Positions 516 through 52,947 of a DNA stretch of 64,000 nucleotides are shown piece after piece (the stretch's first letter is position 1; every line of letters begins with the position of its first letter). Where the stretch lies: assembly GCA_965112155.1 (NCBI GenBank), contig OZ218099.1. One strand, given 5' to 3'. A program made the position numbers and the translations under genes. Under the pieces are notes generated by a model. It made no database searches. It was not told the DNA's origin and was given only the letters and a program-made list of their open reading frames with translations. The stretch comes from Podarcis liolepis. Lineage: Eukaryota.

Positions 516-995
516 TCATTCAGAGCCATGTTTTCTAGGCACAGGACAAGAAGCAGGACGGGCCCTGAGATGGAATCTTGTGTTGTACATGATGCAGCAT
601 TCCCAGGATCTCTGGGGAAAATAAACTTGTGGTGAATTCATCACACAAACTAAAGGTTGTATACATTGGCATTCATATAATTGCTCTACCTAGCCCACAC
701 TGGTCTTCGTTCTGTCTCTCTCTCTCTTCTGGAGCTTAATGGATACCTACAGCCCATGATGTGACCCTTGTCAGCTGATTTCATAATGTTCTCTTTTGAA
801 AAGTGCAGCACACATTTGCAGCTTCATGTGGTCATAAAATTCTTGTGAGCAGATAGGGATTTGGAGAGGAGGCCAACAGCAGTAAATGAAGCTTACTTAC
901 CTGCCAGTCACTTTATTCTGTTCTCCTTCAGGGTTGTCAACCCAGTATTCAGAATTATTTCCAAGGTTCAGATTAACCTCCTTGATCTAAGGAGA

Positions 996-1034
<39 letters not shown>

Positions 1035-2903
1035 ATTGAATTTATATACCACCCTATACCCGGAGGTTCCAGGGTGGTTCACAGAAAAGATAAACATAAA
1101 AACCACAATATATATATAACCACAATAAAAACAACAACCCAATAACACATCCCCCCATAAGAGAGCCACATTTTAAAAGCGCATAGGATGTCAATCAGAT
1201 CAACCAAAGGCATGGTTAAAAAGAAACATTTTTGCCTGGCACCTAAAGGTATATAATGAAGGTGCCAGGCGAACGTCCCTGGGGAGAGCATTCCACAGAT
1301 GGGGAGCCACTATAGAGAAGGCCCGTTCTCATGTTGCCACCCTCCTGACCTCTCAAGGTGGAGGCACATGAAGAAGGGCCTCAGAAGATGATCTCAGGGT
1401 CCAGGTAGTTTCATATGGGAAGAGACGGTCCTTGAGGTGTTGTGGTCCTGAGTCGTTTAAGGCTTTATAAGTCAAAACCAGCACTTTGAATTGGGCCCGG
1501 AAACTAACTGGTAGCCAGTGCAGTCAGACCAGGATCGGAGTAATATGCTCAAACCATCTTGATCTGGTGAGCAACCTAGCTGCTGAATTCTGCACTTGCT
1601 GAAGTTTCTGAACTGTCTTCGGAAAGCAGGAAAGGTCAGATCAGAGTCTGCTCTTTGCCCTCCCCCTCACTCCAGAAGAGTATAAGCAGCACTAAAAAGG
1701 AACTGCAAGTTACCCTCCAAATTAGGACCTCTGAGATAGCTCTGGACTATAGCAACTGCACCTCTAATTTAACAAACTAAATGAGATTGACTGACTGAGT
1801 GCTCACTAATGGTTCCTCGTCATCCTGGAAAAAAGGGACAAGTGGGTTGCCATGGGGTTCTGTGCCGGGTCCATGGTTTTCAACGTCTTTATAAACAACT
1901 TGGATGAAGGAATTAAGGGGATGCTCATCCAATTTGCAGGTGACACCAAACTGGGAAGGGGAGCCAATGCCACAGAAGGCAGAATCAGGATTCAAGATGG
2001 GCCCAAACTAACATAATTAAATTCAATAGGCTCAAATGTAAAGTTCTACACTTAGGCAGGAAGAATCAGCTGCACAAATATAAGATGGGGGACACCTGGC
2101 TTGCCAGTACAGTAGTACCTTGGGTTATAAAGTTAATTCGTTCCAGAGGTCCGTTCTTAACCCGAAACGATTCTTAACCTGAGGTGTGCTTTTGCTAATG
2201 GGGCCTCCCGCTGCTGCTGTGCCACCGGTGCGTGATTTCTGTTCTCATCCTGGGGCAAAGTTCTCAACCCAAGGTACTACTTCCAGGTTAGCAGAGTTTG
2301 TAACCCGAAGTGTTTGTAACCCAAAGCATTTGTAACCCGATGTACCACTGTAGTACATATGAAAAGTATCCAGAGGTCTTAGTAGACAACAGCTTAACAT
2401 GAGCCAGCAGCAGCAGCAACAACAACAAAAAACAGCTAATGCTATTCTAGGCTACATCAACAGAACTATACTGTCCAGATCAAGGGAAGTCATACTCCAA
2501 GCAGAAGTGTGGATTAGCACTCAGCTTGAATTTGTTCTTATTTGTGATATAAAGTTGCTTTATATAACTAGTTCATACTATTCTATTTTGTATAATTTTG
2601 ATATTTAGATCTCATTTGTTGTGGGTGGGTGGGTTGGGACATATTTCTTCTTTGTTGGGTTCAACATCCCACAGTGGCCAATGAGGTGCCTTCAGCACAT
2701 TTGGCAGTGTTCAGGAAACAAATGGCAGGAGAAAGTTGTGAAGCGAGAATCTGAGTAAAATTCTGGGAAGGGGAAAGGTCACACATGGTACATAAGAGGC
2801 TGCAATTGTACGCCACTACTGTACCTAGGAATAGAGTTAAGTAAAGAAACTGAGTAGCAGATGGACCTTCACAGAAAACTATGAGGATCAAGAATGGGAA
2901 GAA

Positions 2904-2949
<46 letters not shown>

Positions 2950-5900
2950 TGCATCACTGAAATCTAATTAATTCTCTATGCAAGGTTAGTTCCAGGAAAT
3001 TCACCAATGCTCACCACTTCAGCCGTTGCCAGGGGCGCACTTCGCCTACTGCAGTCCCTCCGTGCCTCTGCCCAGGTATGTTTAAGAGTGGAGATGTAAA
3101 GGCACTTTGTTTGATACTTCTGAAAGTCCCCTGGACACTGAGGAATAACTGAAACACACAGAGCCCTGGGATAAGAAACCATGGTACTGAAATGATTCTA
3201 TGTACTAATCATGAAAGCTCCAGATCTTAGCATAGCTTGCTAGTCATACACATCCATCCAAAACTGGGCTCCCCATTCTATACTGTTCCGTGCTTAATGC
3301 TGTGGATATTTGCACATTTATATATTACGAATGTATTCTACCCAGCCCAGCAGAGAGTACATAAGGTTTTGATCCATTGCCCATGGATCGTCACAACAGG
3401 CTGTGGATTTAACCTATAATTCAGCCCTGTCTTTCCTCTATTCCTTTGGGCTGTAGAGCTCCTAACACCATCTTCCCTCTAACAACTTGGCTACTGTTCT
3501 TCCAGTGTACATGCTGGTGCTACAGCAACATAGCTGAACTATCCTCAGAAACCCAAGGCAGCTAGCTATCCTCTAAAAGAGCCAAATCTGTATTTGAATA
3601 TTTAATCAACTGGTGCTTGGCAACTTCTCACATACACAATAGTCCCATGAAAATCACATCAGGAAGTGCCCACAGCAAAAGGCTTTGATTCTGTGTATCA
3701 GAGATGGTGAACCTGTGGCCCTCTAGATGCTAGTAGAGTACAACTTCCATCACCCTAACCCCTTGCCATGCTGGCTGGGGCTGACAAAAGTTGGAGGCCA
3801 ACAGCATCAGGAAGGCCACAGGCAGAGGCGGATTTAAGGGTACTCAACCGGTGTGTCCACACTGGGTGCCGAACCAAGAGGGTGCCACATTTTCTCCACT
3901 CCTCCTCACAACACACCTTTTGCCCTAACATCAATTAGTACAATGCCTCATGAACTTCTGATAAGTGCACTTTTTTCTGGAGAGAAGCTGAAGGTACATT
4001 TCATTCTCACATCCAAGAAGGGTTCATACATGAGCCTGCTAAGAGTGAGAACTTCCTTTATCCACGCAAGAAGCCCGACTGCTGCATTTCCATCTGAGTG
4101 GCTCTGGGCCTGCTGCATTAGCAGTGACTGATCAGACAATGCAGAAAGGTGTGGTAACACGACTCGCCCCATTCTGGTGGGGCTGAATGAAAGAAGGCAA
4201 GAACTGTACATAATGTGGAAGCACAGTGAGCTTCCTCCTCTAGGAGTGGGTACTTTAGGCTAGCAGGAATCCTATTTTTTTAGTCTGTTTCCTGTGGCAC
4301 ATTAACAGTTCCTCTCACAGTATAAAGTTTGAGAATGTTTGGACTAAAATGACCAGCGGCATAGGATGATGTGCCCTTCCGGGTCCTCTGTTGAACTTAC
4401 ATTTCAGAAAGGCCAGCACAAAGGCAGCTGACGCTATTAACAGGGAAACAAACACCAAGATGTAGAGGGTGACGATAGAAGCTCTCCGACAACAGCAGTC
4501 CGTATGATCAGTAAATCTGGTGGGTGTGGGCACACCTGCAGATAACCAATAAGAGTGACTATTATAGCACACACAGAGAAATAGCTGGTATCACAGAGTA
4601 AGGGGCCAGATGTGACCTGTACATATGTAAAAGGCATGTGTATATGAGATGACATGCTTAAGTGCAGCCCACTTCCTCCCCCCACTACACCTGCTGTGGA
4701 TGGGAGATGGTGGGATCTGTAGTTCAAAGATGAGGTGGGGTGGTGGAGGGTGATACTTGGGGTGAGCCCCCCTAATGTATATTGACAGGCCCCTGCAGAG
4801 GGAGGGACACAGGTGGGTATACTGGCCCTGGGCCTCGGAGGCCTAAGCCAGCTGAAGGTGGGGTGGGCAGGGATTGGCTGCTTTTTTGTTTATAGTTTTA
4901 TTCTATCAAGAATCCTGCCCTGTGCCTGAGACAAACTCTCCATGGGCCTGTTAAGTGGTGCCTCAGACCACCAATTTCCTTGTCTTCTAGGCTCAATCCT
5001 TCTGAAAGGACAGATGAGCCTAGTGTGTACAGCAGGCAGATAAGCACCAGGCATCCTGATACATGATCTGTAATAGATGGTGTTTGATCAAAGCAGGAGA
5101 AGGAGGGCTTCTGGGGTGGGTCATCTGAGGGAGGTACGTTCCGGCACCATTCTGTCTAGGGGGAAAAAAGCTGCTTATATGAAAATGATGTTTTGAATGT
5201 GCTATAAAGGTACAGTTACAGATAGGTAGCCGTGTTGGTCTGCCATAGTCAAAATAAAAAAATTCCTTCCAGTAGCACCTTAAAGACCAACTAAGTTAGT
5301 TCTTGGTATGAGCTTTCATGTGTATCTGAAGAAGTGTGCATGCACACGAAAGCTCATACCAAGAACTAACTTAGTTGGTCTTTAAGGTGCTACTGAAAGG
5401 ATTTTTTTTATTTTGACTATAAAGGTACAGTGTGCACACAGCCTTAGTTTAAGGGAGGTGTATCGCTCAAGGACACATCCATTCTACCTTTCTGCACGAA
5501 GCTGACCTATCAGCATCAGTGAGTCATTTAACGAAACATCCTATTGGTTAAAATGAAGGCCTTGGAAAGATGTCAAAATGGTGTGGTCACTCAGCTCATG
5601 ATCTGCGTCAACCTACTCCCCTAATTTGTTGTTTAGTCATTTAGTCGTGTCTGACTCTTTGTGACCCCATGGACCAGAGCATGCCAGGCACTCCTGTCTT
5701 CCACTGCCTCCCGCAGTTTGGTCAGACTCATGTTTGTAGCTTCGAGAACACTGTCCAACCATCTCGTCCTCTGTCGTCCCCTTCTTCTTGTGCCCTCCAT
5801 CTTTCCCAACATCAGGGTCTTTTCCAGGGAGTCTTCTCTTCTCATGAGGTGGCCAAAGTATTGGAGCCTCAGCTTCACGGTCTGTCCTTCCAGTGAGCAC

Positions 5901-6931
5901 TCAGGGCTGATTTCCTTAAGAATAGATACGTTTGATCTTCTTGCAGTCCATGGGACTCTCAAGAGTCTCCTCCAGCACCATAATTCAAAAGCATCAATTC
6001 TTCGGCAATCAGCCTTCTTTATGGTCCAGCTCTCACTTCCTTACATCAGTACTGGGAGAACCATGGCTTTAACTACACGAATAGCTTTGACTCCCCCAAT
6101 ATATGGCTTTAACTCCCCCAATAGGATAGTTTATTTATTTACCTGGAAATGATCTAGGTGAGCAATTATTTAAACAGGTTCTAGTGGGCCCTTTGGATGG
6201 GGTGATAGGGTGAGACCTCACAGGCATTTCCACAGCACATGCATTGGCTTCTTCCCAATCCCCAAACCAGATTGAGGCCATGGACATTATTGTGCTGTTA
6301 AGAATCACTTACCTGTATCTGCTTTCTGTGTTTGCTGTGGGGTTGGTTGTTGCCATCTCAGCAAATGGGGAGGTACAACATTCTCATAATCCCTTTCAGA
6401 TGGGGTCAAACTTTCTATGGAATCTAGAGAAAGAAACAGTAGCTAAGGGGTGGTATTAAAATCCACACACCCTTCGAAAATCATCATTTACTGTATTCTG
6501 TTTATGCCAGGCATGTCCAAAGTCTGTTTCGGGGGCCCAATCCGGTCCCTGTGGCAGTTTATTTCCTGGGGTAAAATCCTAAAAAAACCTCCAGTCCTAA
6601 AAGAAACTCAACAATTCCAACCCTAAAAGAAGCTCAACAACTACAAATTCAATCCTAAAAAAAGGTCAACAACTTTGGTTGGCCCTTTGGTTGGCAGCCA
6701 CGGCCCTTCACTTCATCAAATCTGGCCCTCTTTGAAAAACGTTTGGACACCACTGGTTTATGCAAAATGGCCATGTAGAAAAATATGTAATGTGGCTTAG
6801 AAAGTACACAGTGACCCAGTTCCTATGGCTGTACGTGATCAAGACAGCATGCTGGTATTCACAGCAAAAACTGCAGCTATTTCACTCCTCCTCCAGTCCA
6901 GCAGCTGCTCCATTACTCAGAGCTTACCCAT
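516..6931 (-). CDS. Lectin gene A: MCEMP1-like type II membrane protein with a degenerate C-type lectin domain (multi-exon; last exon uncertain, possibly pseudogenizing)
   Basis: Phase-compatible GT-AG exons on minus strand: 6931-6928 (Kozak accATGG|gtaag); 6423-6313 (DSIESLTPSERDYENVVPPH...); 4535-4401 (TM: CCCRRASIVTLYILVFVSLLIASAAFVLAFLK); possible neck exon 4093-3998; 3148-3015 (CPGDFQKYQTKCLYIST..HTWAEARRDC); 986-901 (IKEVNLNLGNNSEYWVD..); candidate last exon ~611-516 (WECCIMYNTRFHLRARPASCPVPRKHGSE*) whose acceptor phase is ambiguous. Confidence 0.7.
997..1032. repeat. (GAT)n microsatellite at the tail of an L2 fragment
   Basis: Direct reading; explains the poly-D/poly-I ORFs. Confidence 0.95.
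1030..1625 (-). mobile_element. L2-type LINE 3' fragment
   Basis: Typical L2 3' motifs (ggagagcattccacag, gtcaaaaccagcactttgaattgggcccggaaac) ending at a simple-repeat tail. Confidence 0.65.
1790..2500 (+). mobile_element. CR1 LINE RT fragment, split by a MITE
   Basis: Decayed SGVPQGSVLGP / FADDTKL-like coding (gggttgccatggggttctgtgccgggtcc; tttgcaggtgacaccaaactg) and aaatgtaaagttctacacttagg. Confidence 0.75.
2110..2350. mobile_element. Tc1/mariner-type MITE (CAGTGGTACC-like TIR, TA TSD)
   Basis: ta|cagtagtacc ... gtaccactg|ta; same family as 10764-11004 and 25546-25771. Confidence 0.85.
2905..2947. repeat. (GT)n microsatellite
   Basis: Direct reading. Confidence 0.95.
5217..5420. mobile_element. 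Penelope-like element remnant (inverted pLTR palindrome)
   Basis: ~75-bp inverted arms (atagtcaaaat...ggtatgagcttt / aaagctcatacc...attttgactat), flanked by duplicated ctataaaggtacagt. Confidence 0.75.
5323..5358 (+). ncRNA. Minimal (Penelope-type) hammerhead ribozyme motif
   Basis: TAT-CTGAAGA-a-GTGTGcatgCACAC-GAAA-GCTC-ATA: CUGANGA and GAAA core boxes, stem II hairpin, palindromic stem III, 3-bp stem I. Confidence 0.65.
5626..6080 (-). mobile_element. BovB (RTE) LINE 3' fragment
   Basis: ORF 5633-5962 RVPWTARRSN.SILKEISPECSLEG...LQYFGHLMRR.DSLEKTLMLGK.EG.RRRGRQR.RWLD is the classic BovB/RTE C-terminus, with a (CAA)-like tail. Confidence 0.9.
6508..6755. mobile_element. hAT-like MITE
   Basis: Imperfect TIRs caggcatgtccaaa ... 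tttggacaccactg, with internal aactcaacaa/cctaaaa repeats. Confidence 0.55.
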
Positions 6932-12785: not shown

Positions 12786-14109
12786 TCTTTGTTTAGTAAA
12801 GACAGTGGGCTAGAAGTCAAGAAACACTGGAGGCAAATATTAATAAGCCAGGATGAGTCACTGCTTCTCTACCAGAAACACATAATGTTGGGAGCAGGTC
12901 AACCAGGAATGCTGGTGAGACCAGTATCCTCACGGATAGAGTCAGGCTGCTTTTTTACTTGATTTCGCAGAGCAAGCACACACTGCTCCATCCCATTCAC
13001 ACTGTGCTTTTGCTGAACCTGATGAAGCCTCTGTTCTGCCCACATAGTTGGCCTAATAATTACCCTCTAAATTGGTATTGGTCTCCCTTTTCAAACATCA
13101 CTTCTTTCAGTAGAGTAAGTAGACCAATCCATCAAAGCAAACGCTGGTCAAGGTAGAGAAGACGGGCCTACATGCACACACACAAACCCTTCAAGGTTCT
13201 TTTTTTGCTGTCCTCCAGTTCCTACCTGGCCTCCGACGTGCCATTTGTTCTTTTCTCGTGGTGTAGTACAGCTCCAGCGCTCCAGAACTGTTTGGGCACT
13301 TAGCACTGTTTGCTGTTCCCTCAAAAGTGAGATGTGGCTACTTCCCCAAAGGCAGGCGTCACTGACTTGTACAACAAGTGGACCTAAATGTTTATGTCTT
13401 GCAAAATTCTCAGAAGCTTCCTTTAGCTCAGAGACCACAAGCCATAAAAGGTCTATACATCATGACTCTTCTACCAGCCCCCTCAGTTCCTTAACCCTGC
13501 TTAGTGTGTAATGCTGGGAGGGGAGGGCGAGCAGCCTTAACTGCTTTTAACTTGTTTTTCATTACCTTATATGTAAATCGCCTTGAGGCAGTGGTTTAGA
13601 ATGTGATTATTAATAAATGAAATACAATAATGGTGAGCCATCTTGGGCTAGTCATAGCACAAAGCAGATCAGTTTCGAAGCAAGCTGAGTCACTAAGGGG
13701 CAAAGAAGAGGAAAGGAAGAAAAAGGCTATGGGACATGAATTATCACCAGTCATCAATTTATATACCACTTACAAGTTTCCAAGCAATTAAGACAAAATA
13801 GCCTCCCTGACCTTGTACAGACAATTCTGCTTCCGCTCTAAGTAACATGGAACTCTGTGACAAACCTTATTACAAAGTTCTGGCCCTGTTGGAACAAGAG
13901 ACACCAGGATGTAAACTCAAAAACACCAAATGTTATATTCTGTGGTTTTAATGTTTTAGTTGTTGTTAAATTTTATGAGCCATCTTGGGTCAATCTTTGA
14001 TGGACTGGAATGCAAGTTATTAAAATAAAAGTAGTAGTAGTAATAGAGTGAGAGAATTAATTATTTATTTAATATACTGTTGCTCACCACCAAAATCTCC
14101 AAGCAGTGT

Positions 14110-14570
14110 GAGATTCCAAGAGTTCCAGGCACCAGGTCCATGTTTCGTTTTGGAAATGAGGCACAACAGAGACAGAGGTGTCTTCATCATATAGGGTTTA
14201 TTTACACATATATACAACCTGAGCCTATGATGGAAGGGGTCACAGCATGAACACCCCAAGGTGGTTTTGTTTCTCCCATAGCCACAGCCTTCATTCAAAC
14301 AGAAATCAACCATTGTGCTCTGATCCTCTAGCTTGCTGCCTTTTGCAGCCTGCAACATTTTCCCCCCTAGGTCACATCATAGCCCACTCTTAACTCTGAC
14401 TTTTGTTCTTCTAATTTTCTCAGCAATAGAGGAGGGTCCCATCCATTTACCATCTGGGACAGAACCCCCTCTCCATTGCTTTCTTAATGGCTCATCATCT
14501 TCCCTTTGTTTTCTTAATGGCCTGTCTGGCTTTAACCCTTGCTGGATCCAGGGGTTTGGGAGGCTTGATT
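14110..14570 (-). mobile_element. Solo-LTR-like repeat, related copy at ~36350-36830
   Basis: Shares ggaaatgaggcaca.cagagac..ggtgtctt / caacctgagcctatgatgga.ggg with 36387-36470; AATAAA on the minus strand. Confidence 0.55.
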
Positions 14571-16870: not shown

Positions 16871-17039
16871 TCTCTCTATATTTTTGTTATTCCCGCACCC
16901 CGCGCTGAAATCACTGCAATGCCAGCTGGCCACTAGAGGGGCACAAAGCACACACCATGCCTCTCTACATTTTTTCTAACCAGCGAGAAAAGGTGCCTTG
17001 ACCACAACCTCACCAGTACTCTTCCCTTTAAACAGGGAA

Positions 17040-17493
17040 ACGAGGGGCGCGTGCGTATAACTGCCTTTTGCCATAGAGACGAGACCGGAAATCCAGCCGG
17101 GCGTTCATCGTGTGATAACCATAGAGTACATGACAGGTTGCCACGGTGATCGCTCAACCTTCCAAGCCACAACCTCTGCCGCTGAACTTCTACCAAGCCC
17201 TGTTTTCTTCCGCAGTTTGGTAAAGACACGCAGGTTGTTATTACCAGCCTTATAATACTCCCTTAGGTTCAACTCGCGCTCCGAGGAAACGCTCCGTTTT
17301 AGCTCATTCTCACGGAACGATGGTCGCAAGACCGCCTAGGCCCCCGTTTCGTTGCCATGGTGACGCTTCCGAGTCTTCGCCACTTCCGTTAAACGCATTC
17401 GTTTCTCCCCTCCCCTTTTGCAGCGGCCGTAAAGATTGCCGTACAGGCGGAAGGTGAACATCGCTGCGAAAGAGTGATAATTTCACACAGTAG
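17040..17493 (+). promoter_or_regulatory. TRAPPC5: CpG-rich TRAPPC5 promoter and non-coding first exon
   Basis: Local CpG enrichment, several ETS-type CGGAA/TTCCG sites, X-box GTTGCCATGGTGAC at 17351-17364, donor TAG|gtaaga at 17493/17494 and acceptor taatag|catcATG at 18373/18374. Confidence 0.75.
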
Positions 17494-18377
17494 GTAAGAG
17501 GTATGAAGAGCATTTGGGCTCAGTAAAAGTTGGCGGGGAGGCAGAGGAAGCATTATTGTTATTGCCTTCCCCTCTTAATCTCCGTGATTCCTCCTGGTTT
17601 GCAGGAAGAGTGGGAGGGGAAAGGTCCCCTCTAAAGGTCTGGTGGCGTCCTAGGTGCAGCTCTTTCGTGGTGCAAAGTGGGGTTGTGTCTCGTATCTGAC
17701 CTATAAATGTAAACAGGTTTGATATATGGCTTATCGGACATGTATTTTCCCAAGCCCCGGGAACTGCAATTAGCAGGAGTCCTAAATTGGTAATCCTTTC
17801 ACAGAACTTCAATTCACATAGGATAAAAAGAGGCTTGCAATAATAAGTTTCCATTTGTGGCATAGACTAAAGGATCCTGGAGTTTCAAGTTTGTTATCTT
17901 TGTAAGTCACTGTCACCATTTCAGGGGCTGCTAGGCTTAACTACGAACTACTAGCTATGAACTACTTGGCCCTTTTTTGTAGAGAAGGTGATCAAGCATC
18001 ATTATTTTGGTTGTCTTTTTTCTCAGATTTGCATATCTTGTTATATTGTGGTTTTACAGAATGCTTTCCCCAAGCATCTGAATGTTATACGTTTATAGGA
18101 GTTATCACATTTTACCTTCACAAAAATCTGTGAATTGTGTTAGGCTGGGAGGTGATGGCTAGCCCAAAGTCACCTAGTAGGGATTTAAACTTAGGCTGGC
18201 AATACCCAGATTCAGCATCCTATCCACTTCCTTGTACTAGCTTATATGTCTCTCCTCCCGTGCAAAATAAATATCATTTAGAAGTTGCTATATAAAGTAG
18301 TGCCCCATTTGAAATGCAGTTGTGTGAATTTTAGAAAGGTGCTTATTACCCTTTTAATTTTCTTTCTTAATAGCATC

Positions 18378-18944
18378 ATGGACGCACGTTTTACCCGTGG
18401 AAAGTCTGCTATCCTTGAACGGTCACTCACCCGACCCAAGACTGATGTTAGCCTCAGTGCCTTTTCATTACTGTTTTCTGAGATTGTGCAGTACTGTCAG
18501 AACAGGGTCTACTCTGTTTCTGAGCTTCAGAACAAACTTTCTGAGCTAGGTCAGCAGGTGGGTGCTCGTATCCTGGATGTGTTGGTGATGCGGGAGAAAA
18601 ATGGTAAGAGAGAAACCAAGGTCATCAACATTCTCCTGTTCATCAAAGTTACCGTATGGAAGGCGCTCTTTGGGAAGGAGGCTGACAAGCTGGAGCAAGC
18701 CAATGACGATGACAAGACTTACTACATCATTGAGAAGGAGCCTCTTATCAATACTTACATTTCTGTTCCCAAGGAGAACAGCACACTCAACTGTGCTTCC
18801 TTCACAGCTGGCATCGTGGAGGCTATGCTCACTTGCAGCGGCTTCCCTGCCAAGGTGACAGCCCACTGGCACAAGGGAACCACCCTCATGATCAAATTTG
18901 ATGAGTCAGTAATAGCACGTGACAAAGCCCTGGATGGCCGCTGA
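18378..18944 (+). CDS. TRAPPC5: Trafficking protein particle complex subunit 5
   Basis: 188-aa single coding exon MDARFTRGKSAILERSLTRPKTDVSLSAF...FPAKVTAHWHKGTTLMIKFDESVIARDKALDGR, recognisable as vertebrate TRAPPC5. The upstream ORF extension in the track is intronic. Confidence 0.98.
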   Translation: MDARFTRGKSAILERSLTRPKTDVSLSAFSLLFSEIVQYCQNRVYSVSELQNKLSELGQQVGARILDVLVMREKNGKRETKVINILLFIKVTVWKALFGKEADKLEQANDDDKTYYIIEKEPLINTYISVPKENSTLNCASFTAGIVEAMLTCSGFPAKVTAHWHKGTTLMIKFDESVIARDKALDGR

Positions 18945-21894: not shown

Positions 21895-24800
21895 ATGGAA
21901 GACGGCTATCAGAATGAAGAATACTACAATGACAGTGTGTCAGAGAAAATATCCCACACTGAGGAAGTGCACTCGGAGTTTGAACCTACAAAAGCAGGTA
22001 ACGGGGAGAATGAGAAGAAATTCTCAAAGGGTTGCTCTGGTTCTGTAATAAGGTGTTATGTTCACACAACAGAAGCAAAATAAAGGAGGTGCCCTTACCT
22101 AGGGAAGGTGTCTTATTCCGAAGTGAAATTTGCAACTCTATGCACTATGCCATGTAGCCACAGTTCTCCAAGAGCAATAAAATTTCTTGCTGCAGAACTC
22201 GGAGGTTATTGTGGAAACATTGTAAGAAACAGTCACATTTTTCACTACAGTTTAGTTAATGTCAGCTGCTTTTTGCTAACGTTTGGCTTGCTGTATAAAC
22301 TTTCTTAAAATGTATAACTGCTAAAAATATGTATATCTTATATATTGAAACTTTTCCCCTCAATTTTTAGATATGTGTTCCAAAGGGCTCAATTTTCAAG
22401 AGTGAGGGCTGGATGGTGGGACCCCTGTCCCACAGTGGGCAAAAGTTAGAAGCAATGTCTATAGGGAGACTACTAGTCAGCAGCCATCAAATTGACTGGA
22501 AAAGGAGCAGTTTAGTATATCTGGAATCTCTTGGTACCTCCAAAAAGTAAATCAATACATTAAACTGAATTTGGGGAGAAATATTTGCCAAAGTGAAGAG
22601 GCTGACTTGAAACATTGGTCAGGACTAGTGATGGGGGTGGGGAAAGAAACTTGATTAAAGCAACCATATTACTAGTTGATTCACGTTCTCCAAGGCTTAT
22701 GTCTCACTATCCCCGAAAGACATTTCACTCAAACCAGGAGGCTCCAGAAGGTAACCCTAGTATTGCCTATACTAAAACGCTCTTAATAAAATGCAATACA
22801 TAAATGTTATAAATGTAGGAAAAAAGGTAAAGGTAAAGGGACCCCTGACCATTAGGTCCAGTCTCAGTCAGTTTTATTGCACATAGCCAAAGGCTGCCAC
22901 AATGTACACAGAATTATTTGACAATTAAAAGAAATTATACTGAATTGGTAAAAAAAGACTTAAAACATTTGTATTATTAAAACATTACATACTCTAAACA
23001 AAGCTATAAAAGTACCCCAATGTACAAGTAAAAACATTAAACAATAAAATTCATAAGCTAAAATCATCACATGGTCACTAATGTTAAAAACAGTATCAAT
23101 ACAGTGTGCAATTTATACTCAGAGTTTGGTGACAAAGATAGAGCATAGCCTGAGGTAGATAGATGGGATCAAATATATTCATCTCCTTTACAGTTAATGG
23201 CTATCTTGGCTATATAATTTGCTCTAATTTTCCTAGCAGCAGTTGCAAAAAGTGCTACCCGCCAGGTCACATACTTATCTGTGTCTGCAAGGAGATATAA
23301 CATCATATATCAAGGGGGTTCTGGTCAGGGGACCCTGTCATTATAGGTACCCAAAATCTTTTTCTTGCATCATGTGGCCAGCATGACTAAGCTGCTTCTG
23401 GCGAACCAGAGCAGCGCACGGAAACGCCGTTTACCTTCCTGCCGGAGCGGTACCTATTTATCTACTTGCACTTTGATGTGCTTATGAACTGCTAGGTTGG
23501 CAGGAGCTGGGACCGAGCAACGGGAGCTCACCCCATCGCGGGGATTTGAACCGCCAACCTTCTGATCAGCAAGTCCTAGGCTCTGTGGTTTAACCCACAG
23601 AAGCCACCAAAAGGGCTATATTCTCATTGGTTTGTCTTACCTGTGCACTGTAGAAAGAGAGGGCTGGATGTGCACCCATTCAGGGTGCAGCAAGACCCTT
23701 TCATCCAGAAAGTCACAAAGCAGACAGTCTCTTAAAAGTGCTCTTTCCTCTCTGTAGACTCAATGATTTTGGACCAGGGATATGAGAATGCTGAGCCAGA
23801 ATATGAGTACATCGGGTTTTCTGGCATACAGATGAGAAGGCTACCAGACAACAGAGAGAAAGCAGAGCCAGGTGAAAGGTTCAATGAACTTGACAAATGA
23901 TATTACAAACTTTCCTAATGTGCTTGGAAAACTCTGGGAATATGCTTGTGCAATATATGAAACTGTCAGGGACTGGGCAGAGGAGGAATGGTGGAGACTG
24001 CCTCCCTAGCCTGACTCTTCCAGAGAAGAGGAGGACTGTTTAGAATTACAACAGGGATTTGAGGGAGGTCATAGCTCAGAGGCAGATGAGGGGGAAAGTT
24101 GAGAAATAATGGGAGAGGAGGAGGAGGAGGAAGTACCAAGAGGGTGACAGCAGATGGACTCTTTAGAAAGCATTCCAGACACACACACCCAGAACCCGTC
24201 GAGCCTTGAAAGTAGGAGAGCCAGAGCTCAAAGGCACTTGTCAGCACCTGTAGAGGTGATGAGGATGATGAATAAGGAAGTGGGAGAGATGGGGTGTGTG
24301 TGTGGAGATTCACTTGGGATAACGCCATTATCTAAGAGGCTGGGTTCTAAAGCCTCTCTCTGTAAATACTGAATAAAAAGCGGATGGCAAGAACATTCCT
24401 TGCCTTCTTTATATGTTCTTGGGTAAACCGGCCATGGGAGTTGCTGGCAGCAGCCTGACAGAATCAGACTTTTTCAATTCAAACTGTAATCCCTTAAAAT
24501 GGGTGGTGAACCTAAAGCCTGGGGGTCAAATGTGGCCCGGCCCTCAGGACACTCACGGAGCCATGCTTCCTCCCTCCCCTGCTTTTTAGCATCCTTGATT
24601 GCTTTTCCTGGCTGGAATTTGTCCTTGAACTGTGCTAATGCCTCTTGCTTGCCTGCAAGATTTCTAGTTCCTGAAATTTTCTGACGCTCCTACAGCTTCT
24701 AGGTGGCTTACTCTTCTTTATTGGCAGCACTGTATACATTTGAGGATGACAAGCGGGGACCTTTCGTCAGGAAACCCGTCAGCATCTTCTCACTTCTGCT

Positions 24801-27800
24801 GCTCTGCTCCCTTATCATGGTGAACGCTGCTTTTGTGATGACATCTGTTAGATGTAAGTCCATATCTGGAGAAGGCTAAACTTTTTTTGGTTATTCTGTG
24901 AAGCTTAAAGCATGATGCACGTTTAAAGCATGGCACGCATGCACCCATCTTTTAAATATCTAACACCTCTCAATTCATTTTATTTAAGAAATGCCAATTG
25001 TATACAGCCATGTTACGTTTTAAATGTCTAAAAACTCCAACACACACACACACGATTCCTTTCTTAAAAGTATACATTGACAACCTGCATTCAGCTACAG
25101 AAATCTGAGGACAAAATAGACATAGAATCATAGAGTGAATGAAGGCCTCAGGCCACCTCCTTCTACTCAACTCAGGACATCCAGAGTTAGAACATCCATA
25201 GCAGATGACTCTCCAGCCTCTAACTGAAGACGTACAATGGGGGAGAGCCCACCACAGCCCTTGGAAGCTGGTTCCACTGCCAAACAACTCTTACCATCCA
25301 GAATGTTTTCCTGTTGTTCAGCCAAAACCTTTCCTCCTGTAACTTCAGCTCACTAGATCTGGTCCCGCTTGCTGAGGCAGCAGAAAATGAGCTTCTGTGT
25401 GACAGCCCTTCAGGTATTGGAAGAGTGCCACATTTTCCCCACCAATCCCCCAAATTAACCAAATCAAACCAGGATGAATATACCCAGTTCTTAGTTTACA
25501 CCTTCCTTTCTTGATTTATTTATTTATTTTCCACATCCCTAAATACAGAAATAACTCGTGTTACAGACGCTTCAGGTTACAGACTCCGCTAACCCAGAAA
25601 TAGTACCTCAGGTTAAGAACTTTGCTTCAGGATGAGAACAGAAATCATGCTCCGGTGGCGTGGCGGCAGCGGGAGGCCCCATTAGCTAAAGTGATACCTC
25701 AGGTTAAGAACAGTTTCAGGTTAAGAACGGACCTCCAGAATGAATTAAGTTCTTAACCTGAGGTACCACTGTATCTTCATTAGCCAGTGGTCCTCACTGA
25801 ACCCATTTTATTGTCTCTATAACCTTCTTGGACATGGTTATCCAGATGAGGTCTGACTAGTGCAGAATAAAGTGGGATTATGAATTCGCATGACTTGGAA
25901 ACTTTAGGCCTGTTAATGAGGCTGAAGATTGCCTTAGCCTCCCCCCCCCCTTTTTTTTTTTTTGCAGCTGAATCACACTGTTGAAATGCATCAGTTTAAA
26001 ATCATTGCTGATTAGCTGATACTTACTGCAACTCACTTTACAATATATGAGAAAATCAGAAATCCTATCTGGAGGGTTGTAAGAACCCCAGAACAGTGTG
26101 CAGGGGGAGGAGAGGGGAGATTTTTCTACCTGGTAAGCTGAAATACTTGCACTGATGTCTTTCTTGACTTCTTCCTCATTATGGTGAAAGTTGTGAGGAA
26201 AGCGGCACACCATCTTAAGGTCAGTGGGGTATGTGGGTTGAATGGGAAACCTAAATACCCCTTTTGGATTTCCAAAAGGGAGCCGGTCCCCATGTCTCTG
26301 CCGTCACACTATCATGTGATTAACTATCATATGATTAAAAACTCCTAGATATTGTATCATTTGCTGAATGTTCATGTAGTATGTGACACCAGTCATAGAA
26401 ATATCGGATGAATGACCAGTGGAACATTATGGATGCACTTGCTGTGGGATATATTGTTTAAGGCTCCTTATCTTGCAGGCTTTTCAGTGTGTCCAGATGA
26501 ATGGGTAGCATTTCAGGAGAAATGCTATTACTTTCCCATAAAAACAGGAAATTGGGGTGAGGTCAGAAGCTTCTGCCGATGGCTGGGTGCAGATCTGATG
26601 ATAATTGACAACAAAATGGAACAGGTGAGTCTCTCCTGTCCTGACTCTCTCATCTAAGATGTGGAGATTCAGAGACTGTTGCATAGGACACCCTCTCCTT
26701 CCTAGGTAGAAATTACTGCAAGCAGGCAAACAACAGATGGCAGAGAACTGCTTTCCCATAAAAGCCAGTCCTATGCCCTGATCTGAAGTTGAGACTTAAG
26801 TATAGACAGGAGAGAAATTGGATTGAGTTCACACTTTCCGAAACAATATGTGAACCAAATTCACACTTCCCGAAACAATATGTGAACCAAAGTGCTGACA
26901 TCCTTTAAGATTTGCATTTCTCTGAATTTTGCAATGCAATCCTTGTAATGTGTACAAAACTATATACTAGGATAAACAGTGTATGTAAATGAATATATTA
27001 CTGAAAAGAACATGCAAAAGTGCTTGGCAAAAATATTGGGCAGTAGGTAAGGAGTAATTTGATTCTGTTTTCATTTTGTCTAGGACTTTCTAATTTATAA
27101 AATGGATTCCACGAAGAATCTGTGGATTGGCTTGCGTTATGCAGAGGGTGTAGCAGGGTGGCAATGGGTGGATGGTACAGAGTTGACCTTTCAGTGAGTA
27201 GAATTCCTCAATGCATCATCCTTTATCTTTACACATTGAGACTGAGGCTCAGAAAGCTTTAAGAATTTCAGCAGTAAAAATTTGGAAGTGTGTTTCCCAT
27301 AATACGGACAGGAAACAACATATTCACACCAAACCAAACCTTTAAAGCACTCTTATACTTTATCAGTCATGGATTCACCCAGAGAATCCTGGGAGTTGTG
27401 GTGTATTAAGTATCTCCTAACAGCTGTCAGCACCCATGGCAAAGAATTAAAGGTAGGGTGTTGATGTGACCAGTGTATAAATGGTCTGTATGGAGGTGGA
27501 TGTTACATGGAGTGCCAGCTTGGCTAAAAGCCACCCATGTTAATTCTCCTTCTTCCATCAGGTGTGGAGCGATAAAAATGGGACTGGGCCAGTATCCCTG
27601 TGCTGTATGTGGTGCTTTGATCAGCTGATTGTCAGGGTTTTAGTGTCCAACAATGGGTCATATGATGTCATTGTGATGCCCGGTGATTGACAGGCATCCA
27701 GCCCTACCCACCTGTCACACTTGGCCTGTGGGTGGAGGAGATAAGGATTCAACCCCCTAGTTATATCCTATTCCTCACCCCTGGTCTTTAATCTAAACAG

Positions 27801-28728
27801 CAGCTATTTGTATTTATTAGATTTTATAGGTGGTAGATAAAAGCATGAAGGGCATAGCAGGAAACTTGGATGGAGAAGGAAGAATATAGATCCTGCTGCC
27901 ACCAGAGCCATTGAAGTAAATAGTACTTCAATATAAATGACAAGTATGTTTGATGTTTGATCTGGGACTCTTTATTTAGAAGTCAGCACCACTGTGTTTG
28001 GACGCGGGTGGCGCTGTGGGTTAAACCACAGAGCCTAGGACTTGCCAATCAGAAGGTCGACGGTTCGAATCCCAGCAACGGGGTGAGCTCCCATTGCTCG
28101 GTCCCTGCTCCTGCCAACCTAGCAGTTCGAAAGCACATCAAAAGTGCAAGTAGATAAATAGGTACCGCTCCAGCGGGAAGGTAAACAGCGTTTCCATGCG
28201 CTGCTCTGGTTCTCCAGAAGCGGCTTAGTCATGCTGGCCACATGACCCGGAAGCTGTACGCTGGCTTCCTCGGCCAATAAAGTGAGATGAGCGCTGCAAC
28301 CCCAGAGTTGGTCACGACTGGACCTAATGGTCAGGGGTCCCTTTACCTCTACCACTGTGTTTAAGGGAGATTTCCTCCCAGGCAAAGTGTTCCTAGGATT
28401 GCAGTCACCTGCAGTTGATCCTGCTGCTCAGAATCTGCAGAAAATTCAAGGCCAGCAGCTGTTTCTTTCCCAACTTCAAGCTCTGTCCCCTCTCATCACC
28501 CTGCTGGTATGTGACTCACACTGTTTTATCTTTTTCAGAAACTGGGAGACGCCAGATAACATTCAACTTACCGACAAATATAATTATAAGACCCATTGTG
28601 TTCTTACTTCAAATGAAGCCTCAAAGGGCAAGTGGAACAACATTCCCTGTGATAAGCTCCATCTATCTGTCTGTGAGAGGGACAAGGAGGTGACCTGCGT
28701 TCTGCGGTCTCCACTTTCACCCCACTGA
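21895..28728 (+). CDS. Lectin gene B: type II transmembrane C-type lectin-like receptor, 262 aa, 6 coding exons
   Basis: Exons 21895-21997 (MEDGYQNEEYYND..), 23758-23871 (..QGYENAEPEYEYIGF..), 24728-24853 (TM), 26479-26624 (CPDEWVAFQEKCYYF..C..LGADLMIIDNKMEQ), 27084-27193 (LWIGL..WQWVDGT), 28539-28728 (HCV..KWNNIPC..SVCE..TCVLRSPLSPH*). All GT-AG, phases 1,1,1,0,2, total 789 nt, open frame. Confidence 0.9.
22823..23608 (-). mobile_element. Sauria SINE split by a LINE 3'-end insertion (~22864-23370)
   Basis: 3' tail ggtaaaggtaaagggacccctgaccattaggtccagtc at ~22826-22863; the body resumes at catgtggccagcatgactaag (~23371). Confidence 0.8.
23964..24460 (+). mobile_element. Solo LTR
   Basis: Perfect terminal inverted TGTCAGG...CCTGACA, AATAAA at ~24372; no clean TSD. 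Confidence 0.65.
25120..25440 (-). mobile_element. CR1 3' fragment
   Basis: LKLQEERF.LN.RK.F..VRVV.QWNQLPR.VVGSP, the CR1 C-terminus; catagaatcataga tail. Confidence 0.75.
25546..25771. mobile_element. Tc1/mariner-type MITE (opposite orientation to 10764)
   Basis: Reverse complement of the 10764-11004 element; ends gaggtaccactg|ta. Confidence 0.85.
28000..28350 (+). mobile_element. Full-length Sauria SINE with 12-bp TSD
   Basis: ggacgcgggtggcgctgtgggttaaacc...ggttcgaatccc (A/B boxes)...cctttacct; TSD accactgtgttt at 27988-27999 and 28351-28362. Confidence 0.92.
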
Positions 28729-29773
28729 AATGATTTGCTTTATTTTTATTCCATAGAAACAATTTTTTTTTAAAGATAATTGTACAAAGCAAATACAGAA
28801 GAAAAGCAAAAGCAACTTGTAGCAAGGACATACACCAGTCAAACAGATGTGTCACTGCTGTGAAAACACGTGCTCTATTCCTAACAGTATTTCATGAATT
28901 GTTTCCATTGTATTATAAATCAACAATTGCAAGGTGAGACAACCAACCAAGTATTCCCCAAAGCTTGGGTTAAAAGGTGTGTCTTGTTAGAATCCTAGAA
29001 ACCAATTCAAATACTAATTAGACTCAGGCATGCTGTTTTTATGAGACTGGTTATCCCACAAACTGCCTCTCAAGCAAATGTAGCAATTGCATGCACAATT
29101 AACGACCCACTCAGAGTCCCATCTTGACTTGAAGGTTTTCAGAACTGTCTCTTGGTAGTGGCTTGGTCAGAATATCAGCTGTCATTTCTTTGGTTTACAA
29201 TACACCACAATTCAACATGTCTGTCTTGTATTACCTAATGCACATGGTAGTTTTTAACCCTAATGTGTTTAGTTCTTGCATGTAGCTTTTCTTTGTGATA
29301 ATTTCAAACAGCTTTAATTGTGCTCCATCAACTGAACAGGTTTCTGCATACACAACCCAAAGCCCATAGTTAGTTGGTCAGTTAAGACCAGTTCTCTACA
29401 TACCTCAGTTGTACCTATATACTCTCCTTCTTGGAAAAAGCTGGTAGCTATGCATGGCTCCCAGCTCAACAAAATATACATGCAAGTAAATTTTCCTAGC
29501 TAGATTTACACAGCCTGCATGTCTTTGTTAACACAAAGACCGCATGATCCTTTTGTAATGAAACCACATTCTTTTCCTTTTAAATTGTTTGGAACCATTT
29601 TTCTTCTTTATTTTTACTTCTGATGGACAGAGACTTGTTTACTGTAACTACTGAAACTTTGTAAGTAAAATCTTTATTTATTTACAAAACAAGGTGTCTG
29701 TGATTTATTCTAGCCTACGTATTTTTGTGGGGACCATTGGTTTAAAGGTGGATGAAGGCAGATGCAGAATCTA

Positions 29774-32700
29774 TGCTCGCCCAAGAGGTCCAAGAGGGCC
29801 AAACATGGAGTCCGGCACTCTTCCGTTGCACAGCTTGCAAACTGTCCGTGCCGATCCAAACGTCCTTCCTCCGCCTTGGCCGGTTAGCAGAGCGATCACA
29901 GCGGTTAGAAGCAATTGCAGTGTGTAGGTAATAATTCAGAACAAACACAAGGCGTTCCTTATCTTCTTAGCCTTTAATCATGTAGTATAACAGCATAAAT
30001 CAGCCCGGCGAAACCTCGCACATTCTTCCTCTCGCATAGCTTACGAGACACAGACAGACTGAAACACTCAGAGTAAACCACTCCCGTAAAAGTCTGTGAC
30101 CACGCCTCAGGAATGTGAGACATCACTCAGAACTCTTTAACCCTGTGAGTTCTGAAACCCTTAACACCCCCTCTCGTCTTGCATCCTGAGGGAAATTGAG
30201 GACACATATCTACAGACCTCTTTGAGTTCAACTCACCTCCCATTGCCTTATGCCTCCCCCTGGCATCTATCCCAGGCAATTGTTGAATCCCTTCCACACT
30301 CCCAGAATCACACTGTGCGAAACCAACCCACGCACTGGTGACCTGAAACCTCTCAGGTGGAATCCCCTTTGTGGTGCGAGTTGACCGCCTGAGCACAACC
30401 TCGGGTGCTCCTCCTGACCCACTGGGGTCAGCAAGCGTGTCTCCAGAAAGCTCAGAAGACTCCCCCTCTGACTTGCTGCGTCTTCGGGCCTTCTGCACTT
30501 GGCTAACAGGAGATGAAGGCTCGCTCTTGGGTTCCCTCTTAACCTGTGGAGAAACCCACCCCTGTGCTTGACCCTCTTCAGCAACCTGGTCTTCAGCAAC
30601 AGGCTCCGCCTCTGTTTCTCCTTCCTCCCCCTCAGAATCGGACAGACATTCTGAGAGAACATCAGGACCATCCCTAGGTTTTGACCAACCACCCTGCTCA
30701 CAGAACTCAGCATGCTTGCTGACCAGCAGCTTGGTCTGATCACCCTCTGGGTATGCAAACTTCCACCCATTTGTTGCAGGATCATACCCACAGAAGATCA
30801 TTTCCTGGTACCTTGGACCACCCTCCTTCCGTTGAGCTGTTGGTATTGGCACTGAAGCCCTGGAACCAAACACACGGAAGAAATGCACCTGTGGCTTTTG
30901 CTTGTGCAACAGAAAAAACGGTGTGTCACCTACAGCGTGATTGTAGGACCTGTTAAAAACAAAGCTGGCAAATTTCCAAGCTTCACTCCAAAAGCTCTGA
31001 GGCAGCCCAGAGTCACACAGCAAAACCCTGACAGCTTCAGCCAGTGTTTCACTCCTGTGCTCTGCCACGCCTCTCTCTTGAGGAGACTTTGCATCCGTCA
31101 CCTGGTGACGAATTCCCTTTTGCTTGAAAAACTCCTTCAGAGCAGACCCAGTGAACTGTGACCCACGGTCGCTCCTGAACCCTTGCACTTTGGTGGAGAA
31201 CCTTAGTTCCACCTCCGCAACCCAATCCTGGATCAGTTGCGCCGCCTCCCCCTGCGTTCTGAGAGAGAAAGACCATCCGTTCTGAGAGAAATCATCTGTC
31301 ATCGTCAGCACATACCTGACCCCACCCAGACTCTCACACTTCATGGGTCCTGCAAGGTCTGTGTGAACAAGCTCAAAAGGTTTTGTGGTTACCCTCTTTA
31401 CCCCGGGAAAACTGCACCTTTGTACCTTACTGCATGCCCTGCACTCTAGGGATTTCCCACATGGTGTGATTTCGCAACCCTTGGTGCAGCCGGGCAACCT
31501 CTGAACATCTTCCAAACAAGCATGAGACATTCTCTTGTGCCATATATGAACACATGAATCATGGCTGGGAACACTAGCACACTGCGCCTGTGCTTTTCCG
31601 GCATTCCCCCCACCCTCCAGAGGTGTTTCCAGAACAAAGAGATTGTTCTTGCATTCTATGTTGACAAGCTGTTTCCCCCCTCTGAAAATGGAACAGGCAT
31701 CATTTTCAAAGCAAACTTTGTACCCTTGCTTTACAAGAGCAGGTACAGATAACAGGCAACAATGTATCTCCGGCACAATGTAGCACTCCAGCTCCGCCTG
31801 CAAAAAAGAAACATAAATATTTGCAACGTTAGAAACTGGCTTTTGGGCTCCATTAGCAAACGTAACAGTTGTCCCAGCTGAAACAGCCCTGCAGTTCCGC
31901 AGCCCCCCAGCAGGTGGCGTTCCAATCAGGTGATGACTGGCACCGGAATCCACCACCCACTGCAACATTCTGTCCTTGCTGGAGTTGTTCTTTAGCGTTG
32001 CCATGGCAACAAACGTCCCGCTGCCCCTGTCCTTGGCAGCCTCCGTAACCGCAACTCCTTCCGTTGCCCTGAAGACTGGACTTATCTCAGCGTTCCCAGA
32101 CAGCTCTGCAGCCGTTATCTCCCTCTGCAGCAGATGGCTGGCCTTGAAGCCTCTAGCTCTGTCCGGCTTCCCAGGCTTCGGCTTACGACGCAAAAAACTC
32201 TTGGCAGCCTTTGGAAAAAGAGGCTTCTCTGAGCTTTTACTGCTCACTGTCCCCCCACTTCTCACAGGGCTCCCAGGACGCTTTCCTGCACCCCCTCTGA
32301 TGGGTAAAGGGCTCCCAGCAGCTTGCCTCTTTCCAGGCTCCTCACGCAGACATAGTGCAGCAACCACGCAGCTTTTAGACTCTGCAAAACTGGCAGCAAC
32401 AGCAGCAGTGGCAATAGTCCCTTTGCCCCCCTCCGGGGCCTCCCAGCTTTTCCCAGCTGTGCACCGGCTCTCACGAAGGTGGTCAGCGCCATCTTGCCTT
32501 TCCTGTTCTGATGCAGCCATCTCCCGACCCTTGCTTCCGCCTCCAGCCTCACAAGCTTCCTGGAGCGCTAGCCAAGCGGCCTCTGGCTTCCTGGCACCCA
32601 GAACAATAGGCTTCAGATCAGCAGCCACGTTCTCAGCCAAAAACGCAAGCACACGCTTCTCAGCTTCATGTTGGCCTGCAACCGTCCCAGCTGCCTTAGA

Positions 32701-33403
32701 CATCGGCTGGACCATTTCCCACAGCCTGGCTCCGACTAAGGACAACTCTGCTAAATAGCTCCACTCCAGCCACGTTTGGCTGGTCAACTTCGCACATGGC
32801 AGCTTAAGCTCAAAGCCATGTTCCTGGGACTGAGCCATTTCCTCCCTCGGGGTAAGCGTACTCACGACTGGCATCAGCTTCCTCCGGCTCCCGGCAGATT
32901 GGCCTCTCCTCCCAGTGAGCTCCTCTCAGCCTCAGAAAGCTCTAGCTGGCCCCAGCGTCTTCTCAGCTGGCTTTCCCCCACACGTGGGACGTTCCTGCAA
33001 CAGCTTCAAAGCGTCGGCCAAGAGGTCCAAGAGGGCCAAACATGGAGTCCGGCACTCTTCCGTTGCACAGCTTGCAAACTGTCTGTGCCGATCCAAACGT
33101 CCTTCCTCCGCCTTGGCCGGTTAGCAGAGCGATCACAGCGGTTAGAAGCAATTGCAGTGTGTGGGTAATAATTCAGAACAAACACAAGGCGTTCCTTATC
33201 TTCTTAGCCTTTAATCATGTAGTATAACAGCATAAATCAGCCCAGCGAAACCTCGCACATTCTTCCTCTCGCATAGCTTACGAGACACAGACAGACTGAA
33301 ACACTCAGAGTAAACCACTCCCGTAAAAGTCTGTGACCACGCCTCAGGAATGTGAGACGTCACTCAGAACTCTTTAACCCTGTGAGTTCTGAAACCCTTA
33401 ACA
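29774..33403 (-). mobile_element. Ty1/Copia LTR retrotransposon, non-autonomous (no RT/RNase H)
   Basis: LTR cores 29781-30166 and 33018-33403 (386 bp, 4 substitutions by eye), TG..CA ends, PPT (gagaggggg) next to the 3' LTR, flanking duplication GAATCTA. Confidence 0.93.
30127..32874 (-). CDS. Copia Gag-protease-integrase polyprotein (915 aa), truncated at the start of RT
   Basis: Protease WVVDSGASHH, GAG-pre-integrase WHKRMSH..CRAC, rve core ELVHTDLAGP..SDRGSQF..GVAE, SH3-like IFCGYD, linker RRSTRTTKGIPPERF, then AMGGELNS running into the PPT/LTR. Confidence 0.88.
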   Translation of the reverse strand: MPVVSTLTPREEMAQSQEHGFELKLPCAKLTSQTWLEWSYLAELSLVGARLWEMVQPMSKAAGTVAGQHEAEKRVLAFLAENVAADLKPIVLGARKPEAAWLALQEACEAGGGSKGREMAASEQERQDGADHLRESRCTAGKSWEAPEGGKGTIATAAVAASFAESKSCVVAALCLREEPGKRQAAGSPLPIRGGAGKRPGSPVRSGGTVSSKSSEKPLFPKAAKSFLRRKPKPGKPDRARGFKASHLLQREITAAELSGNAEISPVFRATEGVAVTEAAKDRGSGTFVAMATLKNNSSKDRMLQWVVDSGASHHLIGTPPAGGLRNCRAVSAGTTVTFANGAQKPVSNVANIYVSFLQAELECYIVPEIHCCLLSVPALVKQGYKVCFENDACSIFRGGKQLVNIECKNNLFVLETPLEGGGNAGKAQAQCASVPSHDSCVHIWHKRMSHACLEDVQRLPGCTKGCEITPCGKSLECRACSKVQRCSFPGVKRVTTKPFELVHTDLAGPMKCESLGGVRYVLTMTDDFSQNGWSFSLRTQGEAAQLIQDWVAEVELRFSTKVQGFRSDRGSQFTGSALKEFFKQKGIRHQVTDAKSPQERGVAEHRSETLAEAVRVLLCDSGLPQSFWSEAWKFASFVFNRSYNHAVGDTPFFLLHKQKPQVHFFRVFGSRASVPIPTAQRKEGGPRYQEMIFCGYDPATNGWKFAYPEGDQTKLLVSKHAEFCEQGGWSKPRDGPDVLSECLSDSEGEEGETEAEPVAEDQVAEEGQAQGWVSPQVKREPKSEPSSPVSQVQKARRRSKSEGESSELSGDTLADPSGSGGAPEVVLRRSTRTTKGIPPERFQVTSAWVGFAQCDSGSVEGIQQLPGIDARGRHKAMGGELNSKRSVDMCPQFPSGCKTRGGVKGFRTHRVKEF

Positions 33404-37037: not shown

Positions 37038-37104
<67 letters not shown>

Positions 37105-43971: not shown

Positions 43972-44101
43972 TGGTACGCTCATAGTGATCTTTTAATAAC
44001 TAGTAACAATGTGAAAGATCCATGCTGCTCATTGTCCATAAGAGTGAGCCTTGTGTTTGGTAACTGTGATCTTCTTCTTTCTAAGGTGCTGGTACAACAC
44101 A

Positions 44102-52892: not shown

Positions 52893-52947
<55 letters not shown>

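Follow-up and report, generated by a model that had tools for sequence, protein, structure and literature searches.

A neckless C-type lectin-like gene beside TRAPPC5 in Podarcis liolepis, its orthologues in reptiles and the lacertid-specific remodelling of its lectin domain

Gene A and its transcript

A stretch of 64,000 nucleotides (nt) from Podarcis liolepis (contig OZ218099.1 of assembly GCA_965112155.1), hereafter the window, carries near its left end a gene on the minus strand, here called gene A, which encodes a type II single-pass membrane protein with a C-type lectin-like domain (CTLD). Its orientation is divergent from that of TRAPPC5, whose coding exon lies at 18378-18944 on the plus strand, as a preliminary description of the same DNA had noted. 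That description regarded gene A as a likely relative of MCEMP1, perhaps caught in the course of losing its lectin domain, and proposed a gene model with a possible helical neck exon between the transmembrane (TM) segment and the CTLD, a start at position 6931 and a last exon that lacks the terminal Cys.

Five exons of gene A, all on the minus strand, were located in the window. Exon 1 (13226-13365) contains the 5' untranslated region, the ATG at 13244 and 19 coding nt, and ends at a GT donor in phase 1; it was placed by tblastn of the orthologues' start, whose MARRRP sequence falls on 13244, and is joined to exon 2 in a contig of run X1 and covered in run X5. Exon 2 (6313-6423, 111 nt, phase 1) encodes the cytoplasmic tail with its YENV motif, exon 3 (4401-4535, 135 nt, phase 1) a juxtamembrane Cys/Arg cluster and the signal-anchor TM helix, exon 4 (3015-3148, 134 nt vs 146 in the paralogues, phase 0) the first part of the CTLD, and exon 5 (901-986, 86 nt vs 110 in all three paralogues of the window, phase 2) its second part, without the GL...WxW segment. 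The preliminary description had thus read several features correctly, namely the DYENV tail, the juxtamembrane Cys cluster with the TM segment, the two CTLD exons and the shortening of the second of them; the loss of WIGL/WxW is seen as well, though the W of WIGL persists as YWV. The intron phases are 1,1,1,0,2, the CTLD being split over three exons that follow separate tail and TM exons, and the protein has one TM helix after the N-terminal tail, with no signal peptide evident.

Contigs of four runs from four studies (X1, X5, X9 and X10) all contain the joints 6313->4535 and 4401->3148. None of the matching runs listed is on record as RNA; these four are guessed to be RNA, which their spliced joints bear out, and repeats make up most of their depth. 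In X1, X9 and X10 the depth at position 950, within exon 5, is the same as over the spliced contig. Of the 161 residues encoded by exons 1-5, 150-159 are identical in four annotated proteins of Podarcis and Zootoca. Gene A is real and spliced, with exons 1-5 and a TM exon joined directly to the first CTLD exon. As the contigs of all four runs pass directly from the TM exon to the lectin exon, gene A has no neck exon; the bin 3873-4356 between these two exons has a depth of 0 in three of the four runs, and a neck occurs in none of the 15 rows of the orthologue alignment described below.

The proposed start fared no better, since the orthologues and the X1 contig use 13244 instead; the ATG-G start exon at 6928-6931 (-), with a donor score of 3.7, is without support as the main start and may be a minor alternative one. 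Two other observations concern the 5' end of the gene. A frame at 14065-14376 (-) resembles the alternative N-terminus of Zootoca gene A isoform models and is a possible alternative first exon, and the contig of run X10 extends about 1.9 kb upstream of exon 2, with zero depth over exon 1.

At the 3' end, the annotated orthologues finish in an intact 40-residue exon, which contains both remaining Cys and the sequence YICEK, and for which tblastn found no credible match within the window. The Cys-less last exon ending in HGSE* that had been proposed at 516-609 (-) exists as a frame, but tblastn with the last exon of the orthologues did not place it among its best matches. Frames with an HGSE-like Cys pattern number 78 among the 2430 AG-started frames of the window, or about 0.6 per kb of strand, and the proposed exon is most likely a chance frame within an intron. 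Read depth rules it out in X9 and X10 and does not decide the matter in X1 and X5. By comparison with the orthologues, gene A would have six exons, the sixth and last of which probably lies to the left of position 1, intact as in five other lacertid genomes.

The orthologue group in reptiles

Homology searches identified orthologues of gene A in five lacertid species, Sceloporus, Phrynosoma, two Anolis species, four snakes, Varanus, Tiliqua, the tuatara and three turtles. Fifteen rows were aligned, leaving out redundant or alternative lacertid models (P0005, P0006, P0008 and P0010-P0015), P0017 and P0022, the latter with a long insertion, fragments (P0025, P0027, P0028 and P0030), a near-duplicate turtle sequence (P0034) and a tick protein (P0032). 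The tail is fast-changing, yet its Y-x-N-V motif is invariant, with Y19, N21 and V22 present in 15 of 15 rows; in the lacertid gene A proteins the tail contains one tyrosine. The Cys cluster, by comparison, is absent in Anolis, Varanus and the tuatara, and so is not a constant feature even of the gene A group. In a tree with the three paralogues of the window (B, C and D, described below), the 15 gene A rows are set apart from the paralogues (100/98); the tree has no outgroup and gives no order of events. Judged from these alignments, gene A belongs to one orthologue group of lizards, snakes, tuatara and turtles, which RefSeq already contains, with automatic names of various kinds.

The turtle orthologues P0029, P0034 and P0035 carry in addition an N-terminal GYQN motif like that of exon 1 of paralogues B, C and D (21895, 34613 and 54088), which suggests that the ancestral gene may have had YxN motifs in two exons.

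Remodelling of the lectin domain in lacertids

The absence of the GL...WxW segment is confined to one family: W[ILV]GL is found in 12 of 12 non-lacertid sequences and in none of three lacertid ones, and the lacertid CTLD is shorter by about 10-14 residues. On a fixed topology, the lacertid stem accumulated 1.17 substitutions per site in the CTLD vs 0.20 in the tail plus TM segment, a ratio of 5.8, compared with ratios of 0.8-2.0 on five other branches. All six Cys and the reading frame are kept in Podarcis, Zootoca and Lacerta. The loss of WIGL-WxW and the roughly sixfold burst of change is, on the evidence of this alignment and tree, a lacertid-only, late side-branch event unrelated to mammals. 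The lacertid deletion being later than the split from other lizards, gene A in its present form is therefore no intermediate towards the mammalian gene. The deletion of GL...WxW and a rate of change in the CTLD about six times that of the tail and TM segment, both on the lacertid stem, suggest that a ligand was gained or lost there while the signalling end stayed as it was.

These results leave little of the decaying intermediate that the preliminary description had envisaged on the way to MCEMP1, as the domain is complete in the annotated lacertid orthologues, with six Cys, and is predicted to fold. In its full form, that account holds that a neck is present, that the last exon is Cys-less and that the gene stands midway in a transition from a lectin to MCEMP1. 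The HGSE frame exists and the shortened exon is real, but with the neck missing, an intact true last exon located elsewhere according to the orthologues, and the WIGL-WxW damage limited to lacertids, we regard it as highly improbable.

Fold, ligand and proposed signalling

An AlphaFold2 model of the Podarcis orthologue has a CTLD core with predicted local distance difference test (pLDDT) values of 77-92 in 10-residue blocks, a helix at residues 55-88, and a low-confidence loop at residues 153-164, at the site of the lacertid deletion. Foldseek with the gene A model gave CTLDs only among the matches listed. The best single-domain PDB matches of a turtle orthologue include Mincle, collectin placenta 1 and CD23, and the lacertid protein matches CD69 (E=5.5e-8); the best matches shift with lineage and point to no single CTLD subgroup. 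A profile of the tail and TM segment run against the PDB gave three hits, all at chance level.

The Ca2+- and sugar-binding motifs of CTLDs are EPN or QPD together with WND. EPN/QPD is found in 0 of the 15 aligned rows and WND in one. As these motifs are absent, the ligand of gene A is likely to be non-glycan; a protein or lipid ligand is more likely than one of the Ca2+/mannose or galactose type.

For the tail, two proteins provide analogies: the YENI tyrosine of MCEMP1 is phosphorylated and binds Grb2 and SOS (PMC10090139), and prolectin has a tail with phosphorylated YxNx motifs and co-purifies with Grb2 (PMC2709368). By analogy with both, clustering of gene A proteins would lead to tyrosine phosphorylation of YxN and in turn to the recruitment of Grb2 and SOS, and gene A is likely to act in immune signalling, as a receptor that would recruit Grb2 through this motif once phosphorylated.

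Taken together, we consider it probable that gene A encodes a six-exon, neckless type II protein with a YENV tail and a CTLD, a member of a reptile orthologue group and likely a Grb2-type immune receptor, which belongs to the TRAPPC5 lectin cluster rather than representing a transition to MCEMP1. Several points weigh against this reading. The last exon of gene A in Podarcis liolepis is not directly seen, the final-exon Cys positions being seen in orthologues only, and in three database models (P0005, P0006 and P0017) the usual last exon is missing. On Pfam Lectin_C the lacertid CTLD reaches 16-19 bits, below the cut-off of 22.6, compared with 52-74 bits for full-length orthologues. The alignment behind the AlphaFold2 model included intact orthologues, so that the model, with a mean pLDDT of 66.6 and a predicted template modelling score of 0.48, is not independent proof of folding. 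Among the RNA variants listed (14 coding variants), non-synonymous and synonymous changes stand at 7:2 in the CTLD exons vs 2:3 in the tail and TM exons. Finally, the papers searched contain no signalling or ligand data for any member of the gene A group.

Some of these points could be read in another way, namely that selection on the lectin domain of lacertids has been relaxed and the domain is heading to loss, with the tail and TM segment left as an adaptor, which would make it a convergent parallel to MCEMP1 and not its ancestor. The ratio of 7:2 among the variants listed fits relaxed constraint, and the deletion of an otherwise conserved segment, the long stem branch, the Pfam score under threshold and truncated isoform models in Zootoca all point in the same direction. 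On the other side, the frame and all six Cys have been kept in the three lacertid genera, the exons are spliced in all four runs, and within lacertids the identity of the CTLD (97-100 of 110 residues) is not significantly below that of the tail and TM segment (78-83 of 87-88; Fisher p=0.43 for one of the two pairs compared and 1.0 for the other). We consider relaxed selection unlikely, and retain the reading of gene A as a neckless lectin-like receptor whose lectin domain was remodelled in lacertids.

The neighbourhood of gene A

The TRAPPC5 exon is supported by a match to Pfam TRAPP (E=2.7e-44), and a CpG-rich stretch lies beside it at 17001-17500 (CpG observed/expected ratio 1.1). Further to the right are the three paralogues, of which the models come from splice-site inspection. 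Paralogue B (21895-28730, +) is a type II CTLD gene without a neck; its first two exons carry YxN motifs, and its intron phases are 1,1,1,0,2. Paralogues C (34613-38672, +) and D (45986-54088, -) have the same architecture. B and C have the intron phases and the lack of a neck in common with gene A, and D matches except in exon 2 (53412-53732, -), for which no clear canonical acceptor was found in the expected phase; this exon may be skipped, or it may be spliced at an unusual site.

All three paralogues carry YEN or YQN motifs. Profiles of the gene A tail and TM segment score 16-25 bits on B, C and D, above all 300 block shuffles for each, while a profile built from squamates only gives 47-59 bits for the tuatara and turtle sequences. 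With such tails and such scores in B, C and D, the YEN tail is a trait of the local subfamily and therefore not specific to MCEMP1.

Other elements are interspersed among these genes. The lectin cluster also contains, between paralogues C and D, an intact olfactory receptor open reading frame (44048-45043, +; Pfam 7tm_4, E=1.3e-46). Between B and C there is a young copia-type long terminal repeat element (29777-33313), whose 300-nt direct repeats are 99% alike and which contains a frame of 932 codons that matches integrase domains but no reverse-transcriptase family. A stop-free frame of 160 codons at 52404-52886 (-), in an intron of paralogue D, has no Pfam match and is possibly due to chance. 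Just upstream of D, a fragmented long interspersed element, probably L1-like, occupies about 55100-59700 (-), with an RVT_1 match at 56414-57103.

The possible relationship to MCEMP1

PMC4467842, in a figure legend, lists Mcemp1, Trappc5, Fcer2 and Clec4g in one neighbourhood common to mammals and Sauria, in which MCEMP1 flanks RETN. This arrangement invites the reading that gene A is the reptilian orthologue of MCEMP1, both being derived from an ancestral amniote gene of the form tail (YEN)-TM-neck-CTLD located 5' of TRAPPC5, from which the neck was lost in reptiles and the lectin domain in mammals. Such orthology would be compatible with the explanation favoured above, to which it adds a history. 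Gene A does occupy the first gene slot 5' of TRAPPC5, with the lectin cluster on the 3' side; it has, like MCEMP1, a YEN motif with a single tyrosine; and its protein, with 201 amino acids (aa), is of similar length to MCEMP1, with 186 aa (PMC2646076). The juxtamembrane and TM sequence of human MCEMP1 (C..YRAILSLYIL) may also resemble that of gene A.

The sequence searches speak less for it. A tail and TM profile built from seven squamate sequences was run against 1.84 billion (1.84e9) representative proteins and gave 13 matches at E<=1e-3. Nine of these are named reptile proteins, three are unnamed but resemble them, and one is a tick mucin; none was named as mammalian, a negative that is weak because the tuatara barely passes, at 37 bits, and because human and mouse MCEMP1 are only 44% identical to each other. 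The tick mucin (P0032, E=8.5e-4) is taken as a chance match. In two comparisons with the ESM Atlas, all scores were below 0.9 and no MCEMP1 cluster was shown in either, the top match being an unnamed-family cluster called KLRF1, at 0.84 and 0.78, which is at chance level. Nor did Pfam reveal any MCEMP1-like family in the gene A proteins.

The comparative data add further difficulties for orthology. The YEN motif is also present in B, C and D, whose tails and TM segments score above the shuffles as described, and prolectin has YxN (PMC2709368); the Cys cluster is missing from three lineages of the gene A group itself; all 15 rows are without a neck, and the CTLD is complete back to the turtles. 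The orientation relative to TRAPPC5 also differs, if human MCEMP1 is, as we take it to be, in tandem with TRAPPC5, gene A being divergent. Orthology with MCEMP1 is thus possible but doubtful, and the descent of MCEMP1 from a lectin of the TRAPPC5 cluster is neither shown nor refuted.

The ectodomain of MCEMP1 consists of a helical stalk alone, with no CTLD. A tentative proposal, which we put forward with clear reservation, is that the two lineages kept complementary halves of one ectodomain: the reptile gene A would have kept the lectin head, MCEMP1 would be a decapitated lectin of the CD23/DC-SIGN cluster that kept the stalk, and the lacertids would have remodelled the head independently while keeping the Grb2-type tail. 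If true, this would explain how MCEMP1, an orphan KIT adaptor of mast cells and monocytes and a frequent biomarker of sepsis and fibrosis, arose in evolution, namely as a signalling lectin minus its sensing head. On the origin of MCEMP1 there is nothing in the accessible parts of PMC11083414 or PMC11193480, and the literature on MCEMP1 and on the evolution of the CD23/DC-SIGN cluster, in those parts of it that were searched (subscription papers were mostly outside the scope), contains no derivation of MCEMP1 from a C-type lectin and no account of the reptile group of gene A. Apart from the MCEMP1 link, the findings are of modest interest for comparative immunologists: a consistent, reptile-wide orthologue group, masked by many automatic names, combines an invariant Grb2-type motif with a sharp lacertid-specific remodelling of the lectin domain.

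Comparison with known systems

MCEMP1 resembles gene A in being a type II membrane protein of about 190-200 aa with a YEN-aliphatic tail motif (YENI vs YENV) and TRAPPC5 as a neighbour (PMC10090139, PMC4467842 and PMC2646076). It differs in that gene A has a CTLD and no stalk, and the tail and TM profile gave no match named as mammalian at E<=1e-3, the weak negative described above.

Prolectin (CLEC17A) is, like gene A, a type II CTLD receptor with a Grb2-type YxN tail, and it could be argued that gene A is closest to prolectin/CLEC17A-like Grb2-binding lectins, its likeness to MCEMP1 being the tail-and-TM signature of a wider subfamily. The phosphorylated, Grb2-binding YxNx motifs of the prolectin tail fit this reading, as do an orthologue automatically named CLEC17A-like and an ESM Atlas cluster called 'CL17A protein' (rank 8, score 0.76), which is to be taken as a lead only. 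However, prolectin has a neck and a large tail with many SH2 and SH3 motifs and binds mannose and fucose, and in human about 7 Mb separate its gene from the DC-SIGN cluster (PMC2709368). Gene A, with a single tyrosine in its tail, has neither a neck nor EPN, and its other orthologues bear many different automatic names. A closest kinship with prolectin appears improbable on balance.

The CTLDs of CD23/FCER2, of Mincle and of CD69, CLEC2 and NKR-P1 resemble those of the gene A group, and none of these proteins is matched in the PDB by the gene A tail and TM profile. The Ca2+-dependent, sugar-binding carbohydrate-recognition domains of DC-SIGN and prolectin combine EPN or QPD with WND, unlike the gene A group, where these motifs have the counts given above.

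Closest of all are the annotated orthologues XP_028573096 (Podarcis muralis), XP_034960694 (Zootoca), XP_044309965 (Varanus), XP_048690227 (Caretta) and A0A8D0G472 (Sphenodon), which, like gene A, have a YxNV tail, a TM segment and a neckless CTLD. Their automatic names are inconsistent (KLRB1-like, CD69-like, neurocan-like, CLEC17A-like, CLEC2-like and lectoxin-like), and within this group it is only the lacertid proteins that are without WIGL/WxW.

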